Source: Allosphingosinicella sp. (GTDB taxonomy: Bacteria > Pseudomonadota > Alphaproteobacteria > Sphingomonadales > Sphingomonadaceae). Taken from it: DNA of 64,000 bases. The notes beneath the pieces were generated by a model that was given only the letters and a program-made list of their open reading frames with translations, did no database searches and was not told where the DNA came from. Positions 43,940-54,079 of the stretch are shown here, piece by piece; the first letter of the stretch is position 1, and every line of letters begins with the position of its first letter. The translations under genes and the position numbers were made by a program. Location of the stretch: contig DASVVY010000021.1 in the NCBI GenBank assembly GCA_036386335.1, forward strand, positions 738 through 64,737, given 5' to 3'.

Positions 43940-46900
43940 ATGCCGATCAAGCTGAGTGCGGCGCCGCTGAGCGCCGACGACCGGTTCACCTTTTCGGAAA
44001 CGGCCGCGACGAGCGCCTTGATCCTCGACGTCCGCGCCAACGACGGCAAGAATGCCGGCAAGACGCTCTACGCGCTGGACAACGGCCAGTCGGCGGACCT
44101 GGCTAATGGCGACGCGATCGCCGCGACCGGCGATCGCAGCGCGCTCGGCGCGAGCATCTCGATCACGGCGAACGGCACCGTCCGCTACGACCCGGCGGCG
44201 ATAAGCGCCCTCATCGATGCGCTCGCGCCCGGACAGATTCTCGAGGACAGCTTCCTCTACGCGCTCCAGACCTCGACGACTGCGGGCCAGTGGTCGACGG
44301 TGCGAATCACCTTCACCGGCACCAACGACGTGCCGGTCGCCACCGCGGACGTCGCCGCCCTCCCCGAAGGGAGCGTGCTCAGCGGCAATGTCGGCAGCAA
44401 CGACCGCGATGTCGACAACGGGGCCATCCTCTCCTTCGCTCCGGCGGCGGGCCCCCTGCCCGCCGGCTTCAGCATGAATTCGAGCGGCGGCTGGACCTTC
44501 AACGCCAACGACTCCGCCTATGACGGCCTGGCCGCCGGGCAGGTACAGACGCTGGTCGTGGGCTACACCGTTACCGATCAATATGGCGCCAGCGCAGGAT
44601 CGTCGCTGACGATCAAGATGACCGGCACCAACGACGCGCCCGTGGCCGAAGCGGGCGGCGGCGCTGTCGACGAGGGCAGCCGAATCGCGGGGCAAGCCTA
44701 TGCAAGGGACGCCGACAGCGGCGCGGTGCTGAGCTACGCGGTGGCGGGCGAAGCGCCGGCCGGGTTCACGCTGGCCGCGAACGGCGCCTGGACCTTCGAC
44801 GCCCGCCATTCGAGCTACAACAGCCTCGCCGCGGGCGAGGTGCGCACGGTGGTGCTCAACTACACCGCAACGGATCAGCATGGCGCGAGCAGCGCTTCGA
44901 CCATCAGCGTCAAAGTAACGGGCACCAACGACGCGCCGGTCGCCGAGCCCGCCAGCGCGGGCGTTGCCGAGGATGCGCGGGTGACGGGACAGCTCAGTGC
45001 CACCGATGCAGACGGCGGCGCGGTGCTCACCTATGCGGTGGCGGGCGAAGCTCCGGCCGGGTTCGCCCTGGCCGCGAACGGCGCCTGGACGTTCGACGCC
45101 GATCACCCGGTCTACGACAGCCTCGCCGTGGGCGAGGTGCGCACGGTGTTGCTGAACTACACCGTGGCCGACCAGCATGGTGCGAGCAGCGCTTCGAGCG
45201 TCAGCGTGACCGTAACCGGAACCAACGATGCGCCCGTAGCCGAGGCGGCCAACGCGGCAGTGACGGAGGATGCGCAAGTTGCCGGTCGGCTCAGCGCAAA
45301 CGATGCCGACGGTGGCGCGGTGCTGAGCTATGCCATCGCCGGCGAAGCTCCGGCGGGGTTCGCGCTGGCGGCCAACGGGGCGTGGACCTTCGATGCGACC
45401 GATCCCGCTTACCGGGGGCTGGCAGCCGGTCAGGTGCAAACCGTTGCGCTCAACTATACCGTCACCGACGAGCATGGCGCGAGCAGCGGCTCGACGCTGA
45501 CCATTCGAGTCACCGGGACGAACGATGTTCCCGTCGCCGAGGCGGCGAGCGCAAACGTCGCTGAGGATGCGCGAGTGACGGGGCAGCTCAGTGCCAGCGA
45601 TGCCGATGGTGGCGCGGTACTGAGCTATGCGCTCGTCGGCGACGCTCCGGCGGGCTTCACGCTCTCAGGTAACGGTGCCTGGACCTTCGATGCTGCCGAT
45701 CCCGCTTACCAGGGACTCGCCGCAGGGGAGGTGCAGACGCTCCTGCTCGACTACACGGCCACCGACGAGCACGGCGCAAGCAGCGGCTCGACGCTGACCA
45801 TCCGAGTCACCGGCACGAACGATGCGCCCGTCGCCGAAGCAGGGAGCGCGGGCGTCGCCGAGGATGCGCAGCTGTCGGGCCAGTTGAGCGCCAGCGATGC
45901 CGATCGAGGCGCCGTGCTGAGCTACGCGCTCGTCGGCAGTGCTCCGGCGGGGTTCGTGCTTGCGAGCGACGGCGCCTGGACGTTCGATGCGAGCGAGTCC
46001 GCCTACCAGGGCTTGGCGGCGGGCGAGGCGCGGACACTCTCGCTCGACTATACCGTCACCGACGAGCACGGCGCGAGCAGCGCTTCCACGCTGGCGATCG
46101 AGGTGACCGGCACCAACGATGCGCCCGCCGCCGAGGCGGCGAGCGCGGCGGTGGCCGGGGATGGGCGGGTAGCGGGGCAGCTCGGCGCCAGCGATCCCGA
46201 CGCCGGTGCGGTGCTGAGCTATGCCTTGGTCGGCGAGGCCCCGGCGGGGTTCACCCTGGCGGGCGACGGCGCCTGGACCTTCGATGCCGGTCAGCCGGGC
46301 TACGGCAGCCTGGCCGCCGGCGAGGTGCAAACCGTTGCGCTCGACTATACCGTCACCGACGAGCACGGGGCGAGCAGCCGCTCGACGCTGACCCTCGAAA
46401 TCACCGGCACCAACGATGCGCCCGCCGCCGAGGCGGCGAGCGCGGCGGTGGCCGAGGACGGGCTGGTGAGCGGGCGTTTCAGCGCCAGCGACGTCGATCA
46501 CGGCGTGACGCTCAGCTTCTCCCTCGACGGAGACGCACCCGCAGGCTTCACCCTGTCCGCCGACGGGAGCTGGACCTTTGACGCCCGCCACGTCGATTAC
46601 CAGGCTTTGGGGGCGGACGAGACGCTTTCGCTCAGCGTCGCCTACCGGGTCACTGACGAACATGGGGCCAGCACCACCTCGACGCTGTCCCTGACCGTCA
46701 CCGGCACCAACGACGGGCCGGTCGTACTGCTTCCCGCCACTCGGCCGGAAGTGGCGGAAGGTCAGTCGATCGGCGGCAAGCTGCTCGCAACCGACGCTGA
46801 CGCCGGCGCGACTTTCCTCTTCGCCCTCGACGGCACGGCACCTGCGGGCTTCGCGCTGGTCGCGGACGGGAGCTGGACCTTCGACGCCTCGGGCGGTGCT

Positions 46901-48367
46901 TACGACCATCTCGCCGCCGGCGAGACGCTGCTCATCGAGCTGCCCTTCACGTCCACCGACGAGCATGGCGCCACTGGCGCGGCGCGCCTGGTCGTCTCCG
47001 TTACCGGCACCAATGACGGCCCGACCCACAGCGGCACCCCTGTCGTCCTCCCCGGCGGTCTCGAGGACACCCCCTACTCCTTCGGCCTCGCCGAGCTGCT
47101 CGCCGGCTGGAGCGATCCCGACGGGGATCCGCTCTCCGTCGGCTCGATCAGCGTCAGCAGCGGCTCGATCAGCGTCAGCGGCGGCACCGTCACCTACACA
47201 CCCGTCGCGGACGCGAGCGGCCCGGTGACGATCAACTACCAGGTCGCCGACTCGCACGGCGCCGCCAGCGCCGCGAGCGCCAGCTTCACCGTGGCGGCGG
47301 TAAACGACGCCGCGGTGATCGGCGGGACGCGGACCGGCAGCGTCACCGAGGCGGCTCTGGGCAATGCGGGGGTTCCCACGTCCAGCGGGCAGTTGACGAT
47401 CGCCGACAAGGACAGCCCGGCCAGCTTCCGCGCCGTCACCGACCAGCAGAGCCTGTCCGGCTACGGCACCGTCTCGCTCACCGCCGCCGGCGCCTGGACC
47501 TACAGCCTCGACAACAAGGCGGCGGCGGTCGAGCGGCTGGCGACGGGGCAGACCGTCACCGACAGCTTCTGGGCGGTCGCCGCGGACGGAACCCAGTCGC
47601 TCGTCACGATCACGGTGCGCGGCGCCAACGACTTCACCGCGCCGAGCGCGTCCACCGCCATGTGGGGCGACCCCAACGACCAGGAGGTCGTTCAGGGCGG
47701 CTGGGGCTATGCCGACCAGGTCGTCTTCGGCACCGAGGGTGCGGACCGGATCGTCACCAACGACGGCAAGGACCGCATCTACGGCAAGGGCGGCAACGAC
47801 GAGCTTTACGGCTACAACGGGGACGACCTCATCTTCGGCGATGCCGGCGACGACCAGCTCTTCGGCCAGGTCGGGAACGACCAGCTCATCGGCGGCATCG
47901 GCAACGACGTCATCTATTTCGGCTCGGGGCAGGACATCGGCTCGGGCAGCGCCGGCAACGACATCATGTACGGCGGCTCCGGCGCCGACGACTTCAGCGG
48001 CAATGAGGGCGACGACGTGCTGATCGGCGGCTGGGGACGCGATTATACCCAGGGCGGCGCCGGCGCCGACCGCTTCGTCTACCTCGACCTGCGCGACACC
48101 AACGACATCCTCGAGGATTTCGTGTTCGGCGTCGACACGCTCGACTTCTCCGCGCTGGATGCGAATGCGGCGGTGGCGGGCGACCAGGCTTTCGCCTGGG
48201 GCGGGCTCGATCCGCGCGCGAACGGCGTGTGGATGACGCAGGTCGGCAGCACCGTCACCTTCTATGCGGACACGGACGGCAACGTTGCGACGGCGGAGTT
48301 CATGGTGGTGATCTCCGGCACCTCGCTGGCCTCGTTCGATCAGGCTCCGGCGAGCATCCTCTTCTAG
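43940..48367 (+). CDS. Large VCBS/Ig-like repeat adhesin with RTX Ca-binding C-terminus (T1SS substrate-like)
   Basis: Ten GTND(A/V/G)P repeats plus two divergent ones; GGXGXD nonapeptides; no signal peptide. Confidence 0.88.
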   Translation: MPIKLSAAPLSADDRFTFSETAATSALILDVRANDGKNAGKTLYALDNGQSADLANGDAIAATGDRSALGASISITANGTVRYDPAAISALIDALAPGQILEDSFLYALQTSTTAGQWSTVRITFTGTNDVPVATADVAALPEGSVLSGNVGSNDRDVDNGAILSFAPAAGPLPAGFSMNSSGGWTFNANDSAYDGLAAGQVQTLVVGYTVTDQYGASAGSSLTIKMTGTNDAPVAEAGGGAVDEGSRIAGQAYARDADSGAVLSYAVAGEAPAGFTLAANGAWTFDARHSSYNSLAAGEVRTVVLNYTATDQHGASSASTISVKVTGTNDAPVAEPASAGVAEDARVTGQLSATDADGGAVLTYAVAGEAPAGFALAANGAWTFDADHPVYDSLAVGEVRTVLLNYTVADQHGASSASSVSVTVTGTNDAPVAEAANAAVTEDAQVAGRLSANDADGGAVLSYAIAGEAPAGFALAANGAWTFDATDPAYRGLAAGQVQTVALNYTVTDEHGASSGSTLTIRVTGTNDVPVAEAASANVAEDARVTGQLSASDADGGAVLSYALVGDAPAGFTLSGNGAWTFDAADPAYQGLAAGEVQTLLLDYTATDEHGASSGSTLTIRVTGTNDAPVAEAGSAGVAEDAQLSGQLSASDADRGAVLSYALVGSAPAGFVLASDGAWTFDASESAYQGLAAGEARTLSLDYTVTDEHGASSASTLAIEVTGTNDAPAAEAASAAVAGDGRVAGQLGASDPDAGAVLSYALVGEAPAGFTLAGDGAWTFDAGQPGYGSLAAGEVQTVALDYTVTDEHGASSRSTLTLEITGTNDAPAAEAASAAVAEDGLVSGRFSASDVDHGVTLSFSLDGDAPAGFTLSADGSWTFDARHVDYQALGADETLSLSVAYRVTDEHGASTTSTLSLTVTGTNDGPVVLLPATRPEVAEGQSIGGKLLATDADAGATFLFALDGTAPAGFALVADGSWTFDASGGAYDHLAAGETLLIELPFTSTDEHGATGAARLVVSVTGTNDGPTHSGTPVVLPGGLEDTPYSFGLAELLAGWSDPDGDPLSVGSISVSSGSISVSGGTVTYTPVADASGPVTINYQVADSHGAASAASASFTVAAVNDAAVIGGTRTGSVTEAALGNAGVPTSSGQLTIADKDSPASFRAVTDQQSLSGYGTVSLTAAGAWTYSLDNKAAAVERLATGQTVTDSFWAVAADGTQSLVTITVRGANDFTAPSASTAMWGDPNDQEVVQGGWGYADQVVFGTEGADRIVTNDGKDRIYGKGGNDELYGYNGDDLIFGDAGDDQLFGQVGNDQLIGGIGNDVIYFGSGQDIGSGSAGNDIMYGGSGADDFSGNEGDDVLIGGWGRDYTQGGAGADRFVYLDLRDTNDILEDFVFGVDTLDFSALDANAAVAGDQAFAWGGLDPRANGVWMTQVGSTVTFYADTDGNVATAEFMVVISGTSLASFDQAPASILF
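44318..47020 (+). repeat. Intragenic tandem repeats of about 297 bp (VCBS units)
   Basis: ggcaccaacga-like anchor recurs about every 297 nt. Confidence 0.85.
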
Positions 48368-48617: not shown

Positions 48618-49163
48618 TCAGAAGATGAAGTCGGCGTAGCTGAGCTGCGCGGCGCCGACCCCGCTGACGATGAGGTGGCCGGCGTCCCAGGTGACGACGG
48701 CATTGCCGTTCGCGTCGTTGCCGATGTGGAGGTCGCGGAAGGTCTCGCCGCCGTCGATCTTGATCCGGTCGACGCCGTCCTGGAAGTCGGTGATGACGTC
48801 GCGGCCGTTATTCCCTTCCTCGAACTCGAAGATGTCCGCGCCGGCGCCGCCGGTCAGACGGTCGTTGCCGGTGCCGCCTTCCAGCGTGTCCCGGCCGGCG
48901 CCGCCGTTCAGGACGTCGTCTCCCGAATCGCCTTCGAGCTCGTCGTTGCCGGCCTCGCCGTAGAGCCGGTCATTGCCTTCCTCGCCGCGCAGCCGGTCTT
49001 GGCCGTCGCCGCCGTAGAGGATGTCCGCGCCCCAGCCGCCGCGCAGCTCGTCATTGCCGCCGAGGCCGTAGAGCGTGTCGTTGCCGCCGCGCCCCTCGAT
49101 CCGATCGTCGTAAGCCGTGCCCCGGATCACGTCGTTCGCCGAACTGCCTTCAAACCGCGCCAT
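48618..49163 (-). CDS. Small RTX/hemolysin-type calcium-binding protein
   Basis: Eight or more GGXGXD repeats; D.ITDFQDG.D.I. Confidence 0.88.
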   Translation of the reverse strand: MARFEGSSANDVIRGTAYDDRIEGRGGNDTLYGLGGNDELRGGWGADILYGGDGQDRLRGEEGNDRLYGEAGNDELEGDSGDDVLNGGAGRDTLEGGTGNDRLTGGAGADIFEFEEGNNGRDVITDFQDGVDRIKIDGGETFRDLHIGNDANGNAVVTWDAGHLIVSGVGAAQLSYADFIF

Positions 49164-49217
49164 TTTCGTCTCCCTGAGTTTGCGGTGGAACAACAGGACT
49201 ACGGATCGGCGGGAGGC

Positions 49218-49880
49218 TTATTCCCGGGCCGGCGAAATTTTCTTCGCGCGGGGCTGGAGCGACGATTTGGCGGCGACGCTGAGGGCGCGGAGGCGCGGCA
49301 GGGTGGCGGAGCCGGCGGGAAGGGCCGCGAACAGGGTGAGCTCGCGGATGCTGCCGTTCGAATAGAGGGTGGAGCGGCGGCGGACATAATGGCCGACTTC
49401 GGGGGACCAGTCCCACTCGATCCGTTCGGCAAGCCGCATCGAGGAGGAGGAATAGCGCTCGCAGCGGATCGGCAGCGCGCGGAAGGTGCCGGCCGGGACG
49501 GCGGTCTGCGTCTCCCGACCGACGCCGCATTTCCAGAAGGCCACCGAGCGGCGGCTGCCCTTGCCCTGGCGGATTTGGGTGACGACCCGGAAGCGGGCGG
49601 AGCTTCCGGGTCTCAGCGGCCACAACCGCTCGGCGCCGGCGGACACCTGCCGCTCGCCCTCCGCACCCGAGAGGGACCAGGCGAGGACCGGGACGACCGG
49701 GTTGCGCGAGCGGGCGTAGGTGCGGCTGCCGAGGCCGGACCAGGTGACGCGGTCGCCCTCGACGCGGCGGACTCGTTCGACGCGGCCGTCGGAGAAGACG
49801 AAGGCGTCGCCCGGCCGGTAGTCGGGAAGCGGGGATGCGGGCGCCGCGGTCGCCGCGGCGGCGACCAGCGCCGCGATCAC
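49218..49880 (-). CDS. Secreted hypothetical protein, coupled to subtilase
   Basis: Overlapping stop/start with S8 gene; beta-rich sequence. Confidence 0.6.
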   Translation of the reverse strand: MIAALVAAAATAAPASPLPDYRPGDAFVFSDGRVERVRRVEGDRVTWSGLGSRTYARSRNPVVPVLAWSLSGAEGERQVSAGAERLWPLRPGSSARFRVVTQIRQGKGSRRSVAFWKCGVGRETQTAVPAGTFRALPIRCERYSSSSMRLAERIEWDWSPEVGHYVRRRSTLYSNGSIRELTLFAALPAGSATLPRLRALSVAAKSSLQPRAKKISPARE

Positions 49881-51682
49881 GACCCCGGCCCGACCAGGCC
49901 GTAGCCGTAGACGGGATCGCGGCCGGGCGCGCCGAGGTCGCGCGCGCTCTTCACCGCTTGGTCGATCGCCCGCCGCCGCTGCGCGGGGTCGGGCGCGGCC
50001 AGCGACCTGGCGATGCGGGCGGCCACCACCGGCGCCGCGAAGGACGTTCCGCTGACGGTGCGCGCCGCGCCGCGCGCGTCCGCGGCGATGACCCCGACTC
50101 CGGGAGCGGCGAGCATGGTGTGCGGGCCGCGCCCGGCCCGCCGATAGACGGCACCACGCGAGTCGACGGCGGTGACGGCGACCACCTCCGGATAGGCCGC
50201 GGGGTAGAGCGGCGGAGCGGCCGGACCGTCATTGCCGACTGCGGCGACGATGACGTGGCCGCGCGCCTCAAGGATCCTGATCATGCGGTGGACGATCGGG
50301 TTGGCTGGCCCCGCGAGGCTGATGTTGATCACCGGCACCTTCTTGGCGGCCATCCAGTCGAGACCGCGGATGAGCGCGGCGGCGGACGCCTGGCGGCCGC
50401 CGAAGATGTCGGCGGAGTAGATTTTCGAGACGCCCTCGCCGCCCATCAGCGCGGCGACCGCGGAACCGTGGTCGCTCGCGCCGCCGGGCCGCGCGACGAA
50501 GCTCGCGGCCTCGAGCGCGACGCCGGGCGGAAGCGCCGCCGGGGAGACGCCGCCGTCGATCACGCCGACCGCGCCGCGGCGGGCGGGCGCGGGCCGCTGC
50601 GGCCGCGCAGCCGGAGCCTTGCCGACGCGGCCGGCGGCGAAGAAATGGTTGAGCGCGAAGACCGCGCCCGAGCGCGCCTGGACCAATCGGCCGAGCGCCG
50701 CCTCGGCACTGCCCGCCTCGGGAAGCGCGATCCTCAGCAATTCGAGCCCGGTGCCGGGGAGCGTCTCGCTCGACGAGACGGTGAAGCCGAGCGCCTCCAG
50801 CGTCTCCCGGTCGGCCGGATCGGAGGAGAGGGCGAGGACCTCCTCCGCCGCGGCCGGGAAGCCCTCTTTGTCATATTCGACCGGAACCGGGAGCTCCCCC
50901 GCACCTGCGGCCACGCCGTCGTCGTCGCCGCGCGAGCCGCCGCGGCCGCTGCCCTCGCCGGGCCCGCTCCGGTCGCCGCCGAAACCGGAGCTACCGGAGC
51001 CGTTGCGGTCGTCGCCGCCGGAGCTGCCGCTGCCTGGGCCGCTCGAGCCGCCATCGTCGCCGCCGCCGCCGGAGCCGGAGCGGTCGTCGTCACCGTCGTC
51101 ACCCCCGCCCCCGCCCGGGCCGGAGCTGTCCGAGCCCCCGGCGTCCTTCGCGGCATCCTCGGCGGCGTCCGCGGCATCGTCGGCGGCGTCTTCGGCCGCT
51201 TCGGCAGCCTCCTTCGCGGCGTCTTCGGCGTCATCCGCCGCATCGTCTCCGTCCGAGCCGGAGCCCGAATTGGAACCGTCGTCGACCTCGTCGCCGCCGC
51301 CGGGGGCGGAGCTCCCGGAGTCGCCGCCGTCATCTGCGCCGGACCCGCCACCCCCGTCGTCGCCGCCATCCGAGCCCGATCCGTTGGAGTCACCGTCGTC
51401 AGAGCCGCCGTCGGAGCCGGATCCGCTGGAATCCACATCGTCGGAGCCGCCGTCCGAGCCCGGCCCGCTGGACCCGTCGTCATCGCCGTAGTTGCCGCCG
51501 GAGCCGGATCCACTGGAATCGCCATCGTCCTCGTGGCCGCCGGAGCCCGATCCGCTGGAATCGCCGTCGTCGGAGCCGGAGCCGCCCGAGCCGCCGCCGT
51601 CCTGCGCAGCGAGCGGCGCGGCCGCCGCGCCGAACAGGATCAGGGCAAGCGCCGTGGCGATCAGCTTCCTGCTCGTGCGCAT
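49877..51682 (-). CDS. S8 subtilase with long Gly/Ser/Asp low-complexity N-terminal region
   Basis: Signal peptide; triad VIDGG, HGSAVA, GTSFAAP; INISLAGP, AAVGN, YPAAYP. Confidence 0.9.
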   Translation of the reverse strand: MRTSRKLIATALALILFGAAAAPLAAQDGGGSGGSGSDDGDSSGSGSGGHEDDGDSSGSGSGGNYGDDDGSSGPGSDGGSDDVDSSGSGSDGGSDDGDSNGSGSDGGDDGGGGSGADDGGDSGSSAPGGGDEVDDGSNSGSGSDGDDAADDAEDAAKEAAEAAEDAADDAADAAEDAAKDAGGSDSSGPGGGGGDDGDDDRSGSGGGGDDGGSSGPGSGSSGGDDRNGSGSSGFGGDRSGPGEGSGRGGSRGDDDGVAAGAGELPVPVEYDKEGFPAAAEEVLALSSDPADRETLEALGFTVSSSETLPGTGLELLRIALPEAGSAEAALGRLVQARSGAVFALNHFFAAGRVGKAPAARPQRPAPARRGAVGVIDGGVSPAALPPGVALEAASFVARPGGASDHGSAVAALMGGEGVSKIYSADIFGGRQASAAALIRGLDWMAAKKVPVINISLAGPANPIVHRMIRILEARGHVIVAAVGNDGPAAPPLYPAAYPEVVAVTAVDSRGAVYRRAGRGPHTMLAAPGVGVIAADARGAARTVSGTSFAAPVVAARIARSLAAPDPAQRRRAIDQAVKSARDLGAPGRDPVYGYGLVGPGS

Positions 51683-51743
51683 CGCGACTAAACCACTCCC
51701 TCCGCTGGATAAATTAGCACGGAACCCGGCCAGGTGCCAAGAA

Positions 51744-51768
51744 AACGGAGCGCCGGCGGGATTATTCC
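51744..51768 (-). promoter_or_regulatory. ECF promoter GGAATAA-N14-CGTT toward subtilase
   Basis: Reverse-strand twin of the 51776-51800 motif. Confidence 0.75.
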
Positions 51769-51775
51769 AGCAGGC

Positions 51776-51800
51776 GGAATAAAGTGGCGGGGCCGCCGTT
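51776..51800 (+). promoter_or_regulatory. ECF promoter GGAATAA-N14-CGTT toward sigma gene
   Basis: Direct sequence; 19 nt upstream of the sigma ATG. Confidence 0.75.
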
Positions 51801-51819
51801 GTCGTTGCACGATGGCCTG

Positions 51820-52329
51820 ATGAGGGACGTTTCGGAACTGACCCCGCCTCTCCGGCAGGAGCTGATCGCGCTCCTGCCCCGCCTGCGCCGCTTCGCGCGG
51901 TCGCTGGCGGGCGGAGACGCCGAGGCGGGAGACGACCTCGCCCAGGCCGCCATCGAACGGGCGCTGGCGAACATCGCCCGGTTCGAACAGGGAACGAGGC
52001 TCGACAGCTGGATGTACAAGATCGCGCAGAACCTCTGGATCGACTCGCGGCGGGCCCAGCGCAGCCGCGGCGTCGCGGTGCCGGAGACGGCGCTGGAGGG
52101 CGTCGTGGGCACCGACGGGCGGCGGGTGGCGGAGGCCAGCCTGACGCTCGCCGCGACGCGGCGCGCGATCGAGGCGCTTCCCGACGACCAGCGCTCGGCG
52201 GTGATGCTCGTCCTCGTCGACGGCCTTTCCTACAAGGACGCGGCCGAAGCCCTCTCGGTGCCGGTCGGCACCGTGATGAGCCGAATCCACCGGGCGCGAA
52301 CGGCGCTGGAAGCGAGGGTGTTCGGATGA
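51820..52329 (+). CDS. ECF RNA polymerase sigma factor
   Basis: LPRLRRFARSL, DDLAQ, SWMYKIAQN, GLSYKDAAE, GTVMSRIHRAR. Confidence 0.93.
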   Translation: MRDVSELTPPLRQELIALLPRLRRFARSLAGGDAEAGDDLAQAAIERALANIARFEQGTRLDSWMYKIAQNLWIDSRRAQRSRGVAVPETALEGVVGTDGRRVAEASLTLAATRRAIEALPDDQRSAVMLVLVDGLSYKDAAEALSVPVGTVMSRIHRARTALEARVFG

Positions 52330-53066
52330 CGATCGACGATCAGACCCTGTTCGCCTGGATCGACGGGATGCTGCCGGCGGAGGAGCAGGCGCGGATCGCA
52401 CGGCTGGTCGCCGAGGACCCGGCACTGGCCGAGCGGGTGGACCGCCAGGAGGCGCTCGCCGCCGCCGCCCGCGAGAGCTTTCGCGCCGACCTCGATGAGC
52501 CGGTTCCCGACGCCTGGATCGCGCGCATCGACGCCGCTCTGCCCGCAGCGGGCGGCGGCAGGGTTGAAAGCCTCGCCGCGGCGCGCGAGCGGCGGCGGCT
52601 GCGCTGGACCGGCTGGCACGCCGGAGCCGCGGCCGCGGCGGCCCTCGTCGCCGGCCTGCTGCTCGGCAGGACGACGGCGGGCGGCGGCGAGCTGGTCGGC
52701 GAGCGCGGCGGCGTGCTGGTCGCGGCCGCTCCGGTCGCGAAGGCGCTCGACGGCGCGCGCAGCGGCCTTCCCGTGCCGCTCGCCGGCGGGCGCTCACTCG
52801 AGATCCGCCTCAGCCTCAGGAGCGCTGCGGGGGATTATTGCCGCGAGGCGTTGGTCTCCGGAGCCGGCGGGGGCGACCATCTCCTCGCCTGCCGGGGCAA
52901 GCAGGGGTGGCGGATCGCCGGCCTCGCCCACGGTGCGGCCGCGCGCGGCGGCTACGAGGCGGTGGGCGGCGACAGCCCCCTCGATCCGCTCCTCGACGGC
53001 ATCGGCGGCGAGCCGCTCGACGCGGCGGCGGAGCAGGCGGCGATCGCCGCCGGCTGGAAACGCTAG
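52326..53066 (+). CDS. Membrane anti-sigma factor
   Basis: LFAWIDGML...RIA N-terminus, single TM, periplasmic domain with Cys pair; ATGA overlap. Confidence 0.85.
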   Translation: MTIDDQTLFAWIDGMLPAEEQARIARLVAEDPALAERVDRQEALAAAARESFRADLDEPVPDAWIARIDAALPAAGGGRVESLAAARERRRLRWTGWHAGAAAAAALVAGLLLGRTTAGGGELVGERGGVLVAAAPVAKALDGARSGLPVPLAGGRSLEIRLSLRSAAGDYCREALVSGAGGGDHLLACRGKQGWRIAGLAHGAAARGGYEAVGGDSPLDPLLDGIGGEPLDAAAEQAAIAAGWKR

Positions 53067-54079
53067 ATCCGGAACTCGACGCCGCCGACCAGGACCACGC
53101 CGGATTGCGGCTCGGCCGGCTCGAAATCGTGCCGCATGGCGACGACGTCCGCGGTGAGCACCACGTGCCGCCCGATATTGTAGCTGCCGCCGAGGCCGAC
53201 CAGGTCGTAGTCGAAGCCGCGCGCGCTGGTGCGCGAGGCGGAGAGAGCCAGCCCCCATTTCTCCTCGCGCCACGCAACGCCCGCATTGACCTCGGACTGG
53301 TCGAAGCCGTCGCGGAACAGGGCGCTGTCGCCGCGCTCGACAAAGGCGCCGCCGATGGTGAGCTTGCCGCGGCGCGCCTGCGCGCCGAGGCTCCAGCTGT
53401 CGATATCGGCGAGGCCGGGCCGCTCGGCGCCGCCGTGGACATAGGCCGCGCTCCCGCCCAGCACCCATTCGCCGACGGGTCGCTCATATTGGGCGCCGAG
53501 CTCGAAGCCGTTGCGGTGGACGGCGTTGCCCCGGTCCACCTCCGGCGCCCAGGAGACGCCCAGCCGCAGCCCCCCGAGCGGCGGCGAGAAATAGGCCAGC
53601 TTGAACGACTGGCGCGTGTCGGTCGGCCAGAGCAGGGCGGGCGGGCCGGAATAGCGGGCGAAGTCGCCGCGTATCTGGCCCGATCCGAGGACGGGCGCGT
53701 AGAAGCTCATGCGGCGGGCCGGCCCGCTGGTCAGCCCGACCTCGGCGCGCCCCCACTCGCTCGCGACATAGCCGTAGAGGCGGTCGTTCTTCAGCGTGTC
53801 CGGGCGGTTGTCGGCCGTGTCGCCGGAGGCGTAGGCGCCGACGATCACGCCACTCTTCGAAGTCCATTCGACGTTGAGCGACCCGAAGGCGTCGACATCT
53901 CCCTCCTCCTCGAACCCGAGATCGAGCTCCGGATCGTCTACCAGCGCGCCGGTGAGCGAGACGTTCGCGTTTGCGACCAGGACGAACTCGCCCCGCTCGT
54001 AGCGCAATTCGGCCATGGCCGGCGCGGGGACGCAGAGCGCGGCCAGCGCGAGACCTCCAAGCCATTGGATTTTATGCAT
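53063..54079 (-). CDS. Outer-membrane porin
   Basis: Signal peptide ending AMA; amphipathic beta strands; C-terminal VEFRI. Confidence 0.75.
   Translation of the reverse strand: MHKIQWLGGLALAALCVPAPAMAELRYERGEFVLVANANVSLTGALVDDPELDLGFEEEGDVDAFGSLNVEWTSKSGVIVGAYASGDTADNRPDTLKNDRLYGYVASEWGRAEVGLTSGPARRMSFYAPVLGSGQIRGDFARYSGPPALLWPTDTRQSFKLAYFSPPLGGLRLGVSWAPEVDRGNAVHRNGFELGAQYERPVGEWVLGGSAAYVHGGAERPGLADIDSWSLGAQARRGKLTIGGAFVERGDSALFRDGFDQSEVNAGVAWREEKWGLALSASRTSARGFDYDLVGLGGSYNIGRHVVLTADVVAMRHDFEPAEPQSGVVLVGGVEFRI

Follow-up and report, generated by a model that had tools for sequence, protein, structure and literature searches.

The stretch of DNA examined here (the window) comprises 64,000 nucleotides (nt) of an Allosphingosinicella sp. 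genome (assembly GCA_036386335.1, contig DASVVY010000021.1, positions 738-64,737 of the forward strand), a soil/biocrust metagenome-assembled genome (MAG) of 3,520,686 bp in 217 contigs with 69% GC. Coordinates given below are window positions unless a contig or locus label is stated. Two mirrored copies of a promoter-like motif lie between a sigma/anti-sigma gene pair on the plus strand and a gene for a subtilisin-like S8 protease on the minus strand, and a third copy, ~2.5 kb from this pair, precedes a gene for a small RTX (calcium-binding nonapeptide repeat) protein. Judged by sequence and gene order, the region is one copy of a signalling cassette of group ECF26 among the sigma factors of extracytoplasmic function (ECF), of the type represented by RpoE6 of Sinorhizobium meliloti. 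The adjacent ECF26 sigma factor very probably reads all three promoters, namely its own, that of an operon encoding the protease and a YmcC-fold partner, and that of the RTX gene.

The mirrored motif reads GGAATAA-N14-CGTT. On the plus strand, a -35 box GGAATAA (51776-51782) is followed by 14 nt and a -10 box CGTT (51797-51800); on the minus strand, the same boxes occupy positions 51768-51762 and 51747-51744, again 14 nt apart, with a gap of 7 bases (51769-51775) from one -35 box to the other. An earlier note on this DNA had described this arrangement, with one copy facing the sigma/anti-sigma pair and the other the S8 protease gene and a coupled gene, and both the motif positions and the gene calls are borne out. 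Its description of the two promoters as identical holds for the -35 and -10 boxes and fails for the spacers, which differ.

The plus-strand copy (51776-51800) is predicted to drive the sigma/anti-sigma operon as an ECF26-type promoter and to be autoregulatory, with a transcription start site placed near 51807, ~13 nt before the sigma ATG at 51820. The minus-strand copy (51744-51768) is the predicted ECF26-type promoter of the S8 protease operon; here transcription would start near 51737, giving a 5' untranslated region of ~55 nt before the ATG at 51682, and this leader contains a strong Shine-Dalgarno sequence (GGAGGGAG) upstream of that ATG. The predicted start sites of the two divergent promoters are ~70 bp apart. 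The third candidate promoter, GGAATAA-N14-CGTA (49200-49224, minus strand), overlaps the TAA stop codon of the open reading frame (ORF) of 220 amino acids (aa) that is coupled to the protease gene. Its -10 box ends 37 nt upstream of the RTX ATG, and the RTX gene would have a leader of ~30 nt.

Chance occurrence of the motif was considered and rejected, since its exact form is present only twice in the 3.52 Mb genome, both times at this locus. GGAATAA by itself occurs only 73 times when both strands of the whole genome are counted. Four matches with at most one mismatch were found in the window against 0.19 expected, a number reached by none of 100 shuffled sequences. The genome was then scanned with a two-block position weight matrix (PWM) for which 138 sites from other loci, and none from the window locus, were used. 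The best match in the entire genome is the S8 promoter (21.4 bits, rank 1), while the sigma promoter ranks fourth (16.7 bits) and the RTX promoter ninth (14.0 bits); the other high-scoring hits fall within long ORFs or are GGAAC sites of the type read by the general-stress sigma factor EcfG. The scan thus upholds the proposal of the earlier note that the motif can serve as a regulon signature, and it returned no convincing targets in the genome beyond the three local promoters. The regulon appears to be local here, with three promoters serving five genes.

The sigma factor (169 aa; 51820-52329, plus strand) matches the Pfam models Sigma70_r2, Sigma70_r4_2 and Sigma70_ECF. An alternative start at GTG 51784 was rejected because this codon falls inside the promoter, and the ATG at 51820 is therefore taken as the start. 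The protein is 50% identical to S. meliloti RpoE6 over 151 aa (E 1e-50) and 38-77% identical to the sigma factors of related loci; it is the only RpoE6-type sigma factor of the genome, the next paralogue being 34% identical. The gene for the membrane anti-sigma factor (246 aa; 52326-53066, plus strand) begins within an ATGA overlap with the sigma stop codon. Its product is 29% identical to the S. meliloti anti-sigma factor EcfR6 over the full length, and matches the family NF052375 weakly. In an AlphaFold2 (AF2) model (pLDDT 85), an N-terminal helical anti-sigma domain is followed by one transmembrane helix (residues ~98-115) and a periplasmic alpha/beta domain. Cysteines C172 and C189 of this periplasmic domain are invariant in an alignment of 44 orthologues, and a search of the PDB with the fold of the periplasmic domain gave no significant match (best E 0.08).

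The leftward operon begins with the gene for an exported S8A subtilisin-like serine protease (601 aa; 49877-51682, minus strand; Peptidase_S8, 1.3e-22). Its signal peptide leads into an acidic linker of low complexity, ~230 aa long and rich in G, S and D; next come a conserved ~95-aa domain, which stands at the position of a propeptide, and a compact catalytic domain. The catalytic D/H/N/S residues are intact, and are invariant in 16 orthologues; the protease profile covers the whole of mature subtilisin (7.5e-34). The signal peptide is of the Sec type and is not accompanied by a further secretion domain. Over 352 aa, the protein is 38% identical to the SMa0142-type protease encoded on the S. 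meliloti replicon pSymA.

Translationally coupled to the protease gene by a 4-nt GTGA overlap is the gene for the 220-aa protein, here called p220 (49218-49880, minus strand). It has no Pfam or NCBIfam match, and its ~108 homologues are all named 'hypothetical'. The alignment shows two cysteines to be invariant and a short stretch at the N-terminus to be hydrophobic, so that p220 is probably periplasmic. Its AF2 model (pLDDT 93) has a YmcC-like open beta-barrel fold, and the top Foldseek match is the Escherichia coli lipoprotein YmcC (2in5; E 2.6e-6, TM-score 0.5-0.6). Most orthologous cassettes lack p220. Among the related loci, which are labelled with L numbers, it was found downstream of the S8 gene in L031, L032, L033, L037, L042, L045, L048 and L077. 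An acidic D/E-rich linker of 175-280 aa is present only in the subclade of proteases that also carries p220. In the window protease this linker spans residues ~28-260; acidic-linker proteases were listed in the relatives L031, L033, L042, L045, L048 and L077, and D+E make up 26-42% of the linker in most relatives that carry it.

The third promoter faces a gene for a small RTX protein (181 aa, ending ...ADFIF; 48618-49163, minus strand; HemolysinCabind, 1.9e-52), which is a probable type I secretion substrate and a probable third local target of the sigma factor. In the two RTX-bearing relatives, L031 and L077, the homologous gene occupies the same position, and the promoter motif recurs in the equivalent gap between the p220 and RTX genes (at 7709 in L031 and 7744 in L077); this conservation supports the RTX promoter. 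The combination of an acidic linker, a subclade-specific YmcC-fold partner and a co-regulated RTX protein hints at a connection with calcium.

The assignment of these promoters to the adjacent sigma factor draws on work in S. meliloti, in which RpoE6 belongs to group ECF26 and a divergently encoded serine protease was described as widely conserved in that group (Lang et al., 2018, PMC6180224), the group context being credited there to Staron et al. (2009). Overexpression of RpoE6 induces the protease gene SMa0142 (log fold change 4.7) and ecfR6 (PMC6180224). After sigma overexpression, the SMa0142 promoter was mapped by rapid amplification of cDNA 5' ends as AAGAGGGAATAGACCGACGACTCAGCCGTTCTGACACA, that is GGAATAG-N14-CGTT, and the cross-species ECF26 consensus consists of a -35 element GGAATA and a -10 element GT (PMC6180224). 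We located both published promoters on the pSymA record, between the orthologous sigma and S8 genes. The window locus has the features of this type: a sigma factor of sigma-2 and sigma-4 domains only, a coupled anti-sigma factor, a divergent SMa0142 orthologue and GGAATA/(C)GT(T/C) promoters. Orthology and conservation together support the claim of the earlier note that the motifs are promoters of the adjacent sigma factor, one of them autoregulatory and the other serving the S8 operon.

A rival reading concerns a second sigma factor, EcfG. If EcfG were the main reader of the promoters, the cluster would belong to the general stress response as one of its branches. A single base separates the motif from GGAAC-N16-CGTT, the window sigma domain also matches the Pfam model PhyR_sigma2, and the genome holds an EcfG-like paralogue on contig C185 with GGAAC-N16-CGTT ~320 nt upstream of it; in S. 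meliloti, moreover, 67% of the RpoE6 targets overlap the RpoE2 regulon (PMC6180224). However, the two genes of the cassette itself, SMa0142 and ecfR6, respond there to RpoE6 and not to RpoE2, with SMa0142 responding weakly to RpoE4 (PMC6180224), and the extended -35 element GGA(A/T)(T/G)AAA is specific to this cassette over ~100 loci and unlike the GGAAC sites elsewhere in the genome. The system of EcfG, NepR and PhyR (group ECF15) is likewise alphaproteobacterial, and its promoter GGAAC-N16-17-CGTT is very similar, but its -35 element is GGAAC where that of the window is GGAATAA, with a TAA(A) extension. Nor are its partners found here: the anti-sigma factor is a membrane protein of 246 aa rather than a small cytoplasmic protein of the NepR type, and no PhyR is encoded nearby. 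We regard a main role of EcfG at these promoters as very doubtful. A site of the EcfG type was noticed on contig C48 (~16890, minus strand), where GGAAC-N16-CGTC stands 55 nt upstream of a gene for a GlsB/YeaQ-like small membrane protein; this gene is a typical general-stress target outside the ECF26 regulon.

The motif was also followed through 100 related loci, with the pattern GGA[AT][TG]AA-N14/15-CGT[TAC] and with random windows of the same loci as the control. The sigma gene is closely preceded by it in 84 of the 100 loci, whereas 4.6% of the control windows contain it, and the sigma-directed copy ends from a few to ~25 nt before the predicted sigma start. In 136 of 138 sites, 14 or 15 nt separate the -35 box from the -10 box, and the extended -35 element is conserved in the cassette across these ~100 loci. 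The relative placement of the two promoters, on the other hand, takes three forms. In the clade of the window and in some others they stand back to back, with the -35 boxes 4-74 bp apart. The cultured Blastomonas sp. AAP53 (L042) is of this form, and its two motifs have 15 bp between them. A single 32-bp palindrome, GGAT[GT]AAACG-N12-CGTTT[CA]ATCC, contains both copies in ~32 loci, which take in most of the Sphingomonadaceae and the Brevundimonas/Caulobacter group (the palindrome loci are L005, L007-L011, L013-L026, L030 and many of L035-L093; the sequence of L005 is GGATGAAACGCGCGAGGCCACTCGTTTCATCC). A cultured carrier of this form is Sphingobium boeckii DSM 25079 (L055). The -35 box of each strand lies just beyond the -10 box of the opposite strand in this palindrome, so that initiation in one direction should exclude initiation in the other at each event. 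A literature search on bidirectional or palindromic ECF promoters yielded nothing relevant and no description of the palindrome layout. Finally, the two published promoters of S. meliloti pSymA (L111, 4567-4634) stand face to face, and their transcript 5' ends cross by ~8 nt.

These layouts also bear on a reading in which a dimeric transcription factor binds the inverted repeat TTATTCC-N7-GGAATAA as its operator. In favour of it, the repeat is perfect (7+7) and lies between two divergent genes, and relatives have a 32-bp palindrome at the same position. Yet the distance from one GGAATAA to the other ranges over 4-74 bp while that from each box to its CGTT stays at 14-15 nt, and in most relatives the orientation is inverted, with CGTT inside and GGAT..AA outside. 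A fixed spacer within each copy combined with a free arrangement of the two copies argues for promoters and not for an operator. Furthermore, the cluster has no conserved gene for a transcription factor, and the same motif has been mapped as a promoter in S. meliloti (PMC6180224). The operator reading was rejected on account of this varying geometry, and is scarcely credible.

If the adjacent ECF26 sigma factor reads the three promoters, the cassette would work as follows. Once released by the anti-sigma factor, the sigma factor would form a holoenzyme that initiates rightward into its own operon, which would constitute positive autoregulation with the co-produced anti-sigma factor acting as a brake. 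The same holoenzyme would also initiate leftward into the S8 protease gene and the coupled gene of the YmcC-fold partner, and the third, weaker copy with its CGTA -10 box would boost the small RTX protein at the end of the operon. The role of the protease is most simply that of an output of the system. Several points weigh against this account. Start sites and sigma dependence in the host MAG rest on orthology; a search for sequencing runs that contain this sequence yielded DNA runs of soil and biocrust metagenomes and no RNA runs. The sigma promoter leaves a ~13-nt leader without a clear Shine-Dalgarno sequence. The motif resembles the EcfG promoter GGAAC-N16-17-CGTT, and cross-recognition by EcfG may occur by analogy with the overlap of the RpoE6 and RpoE2 regulons in S. 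meliloti. In addition, the mapped rpoE6 promoter of S. meliloti matches GGAATA poorly, and autoregulation through the exact motif is therefore not universal.

The distribution of the cassette was surveyed in 101 genera of the same family, the Sphingomonadaceae. Matches to the protease domain came from 29 of them, and those from 26 were strong (E <= 1e-40); the window's own genome apart, these strong matches are 39-46% identical to the window protease. A sigma orthologue adjoins the S8 gene divergently in 26 of 30 family loci, most of which also have the anti-sigma gene. Full-length matches to the anti-sigma profile were obtained in exactly the 26 genomes with the protease, the copy numbers of the two genes agree in the two genomes that have two copies, and both are missing from the one further genome of the same genus. 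Because protease and anti-sigma factor are present or absent together, the cassette is an accessory unit that is gained or lost whole. Among species-representative genomes, more than 490 related loci were found. The best 80 of these belong to the Sphingomonadales, Caulobacterales, Hyphomonadaceae, Rhizobiaceae, Steroidobacteraceae, Burkholderiales and Xanthomonadales, and the nearest is from an Allosphingosinicella MAG (66% identity). The layout of sigma factor, anti-sigma factor and divergent protease is kept in nearly all of the best 80, across Alpha-, Beta- and Gammaproteobacteria, so that the gene order is conserved among sphingomonads and far outside them. The cassette is rearranged in L012 (G015:C58), with the sigma, anti-sigma and protease genes all co-directional, and is followed there by a TGAATTA...CGTT-like element and a gene for a repetitive secreted protein.

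Such strict co-occurrence raises the question of whether the protease, perhaps with the YmcC-fold partner, is itself part of the switch. The S8 protease would then make the first cut in the periplasmic domain of the anti-sigma factor and thereby close a positive-feedback loop, an idea close to the suggestion of the earlier note that the protease may cleave, or signal through, the anti-sigma factor; p220 could modulate this cut by analogy with the action of RseB and MucB on RseA and MucA. Full-length anti-sigma factor and S8 protease do share their 26 genera, agree in copy number and are jointly missing from the same-genus genome, and the triad is kept together across three proteobacterial classes. 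A Sec signal with no further secretion domain would place the protease in the compartment of the anti-sigma sensor domain, and MucB, RseB and LolA-like proteins appear in the weak tail of the Foldseek matches of p220. However, co-occurrence is expected of any regulator and target inherited as one cluster, and together with the shared compartment it fits a plain regulator-target pair as well as it fits cleavage. The matches of p220 to MucB and RseB are not significant (E 0.2-0.5, TM-score 0.2-0.3), those to LolA-like proteins belong to the same non-significant tail, its real fold match is YmcC, and p220 is missing from most orthologous cassettes. No experimental link between SMa0142 and EcfR6 was reported in S. 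meliloti, in which the function of RpoE6 was described as unknown and its signal was not found (PMC6180224), and a protease that activates its own sigma factor would need an extra brake. On balance, we consider participation of the protease in the switch unlikely. A fuller version of this idea is quite unlikely: the conserved subtilase would act on its own anti-sigma factor as the site-1 protease, and Alpha-, Beta- and Gammaproteobacteria would share a self-amplifying, subtilase-gated ECF switch in the periplasm. In the subclade, tuning of this switch, for example to Ca2+, would fall to the YmcC-fold partner and to the linker, which is acidic and may bind calcium, along with the co-regulated RTX protein.

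Other genes flank the cassette. A gene for a Porin_4 outer-membrane porin (53063-54078, minus strand) lies tail to tail with the anti-sigma gene, as does a porin gene in the nearest relative (L031, 2700-3788). The same neighbourhood in L077 contains a porin gene (353-1396) with GGAATAA-N14-CGTT ahead of it (L077:281). Unlike its L077 counterpart, the window porin has no motif upstream of its start at 54078, and was rejected as a target of the sigma factor. On the other side, a gene for a protein of 1475 aa (43940-48367, plus strand) converges on the small RTX gene. Its product has 11 bacterial cadherin-like, Big_9 and RTX repeats and is of the type of giant, adhesin-like type I secretion substrates; no ECF26 motif was seen for this gene.

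An ECF26 sigma factor with a divergent serine protease and a GGAATA/CGT promoter is already in the literature, and the locus adds little that is new in principle; the circuit which the earlier note had put forward corresponds to the module of RpoE6, EcfR6 and SMa0142 (PMC6180224). The value of the locus is that of one more clean example of a very widespread cassette, with 26 of 101 genera in the family and more than 490 loci overall. Experiments on RpoE6-type systems may profit from the strict co-occurrence of the protease with the anti-sigma sensor domain, from the fixed promoter spacer combined with three interchangeable layouts, and from the subclade whose proteases have an acidic linker and whose cassettes add a YmcC-fold partner and an RTX target.

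Several known systems invite comparison. The pair PrtI/PrtR of Pseudomonas fluorescens, named in the earlier note as an analogue, consists of an ECF sigma factor and a membrane partner needed for the production of an extracellular protease. The protease associated with it, AprX, is a metalloprotease and is not known to be encoded divergently from the pair. This pair is set beside the window module by description only, and is not the closest analogue. The systems of sigma-E with RseA, RseB and DegS, and of AlgU with MucA, MucB and AlgW, share three kinds of component with the window module, namely a membrane anti-sigma factor that has a domain in the periplasm, a serine protease in the same compartment and a beta-rich accessory protein, also periplasmic. 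Unlike theirs, however, the window protease is a subtilase rather than an enzyme of the HtrA/DegS type and is predicted to be under a promoter of the sigma factor itself, and the match of the window accessory protein to the RseB/MucB fold is not significant.

Within group ECF26, the S. meliloti paralogues RpoE1 and RpoE4 respond to sulfite, whereas rpoE6 is unresponsive to sulfite-generating compounds (Bastiat et al., 2012, PMC3511301). These paralogues share with the window module the membrane type of anti-sigma factor, related promoters of the GGAAT(A) type and autoregulation. In contrast to it, they control sulfite oxidation genes (sorT) and are not accompanied by a divergent protease. The main text and preprint of a reclassification of ECF sigma factors (PMC7826278) do not mention the protease context.

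The closest system is that of RpoE6, EcfR6 and SMa0142. Both loci encode the same three proteins, at the identities given above (50%, 29% and 38%), with the sigma gene followed by the anti-sigma gene and the S8 protease gene divergent; both have GGAATA(A/G)-N14-CGTT before the protease gene, and in both the regulon is gathered around the locus. They differ in promoter layout, since the S. meliloti promoters stand face to face and that of rpoE6 is a poor match to GGAATA, while those of the window stand back to back and each have perfect -35 and -10 boxes. The nearby targets in S. meliloti are SMa0139, SMa0146 and SMa0148; the window locus has instead the acidic linker of ~230 aa in its protease, the coupled YmcC-fold protein and an RTX gene with its own copy of the promoter.

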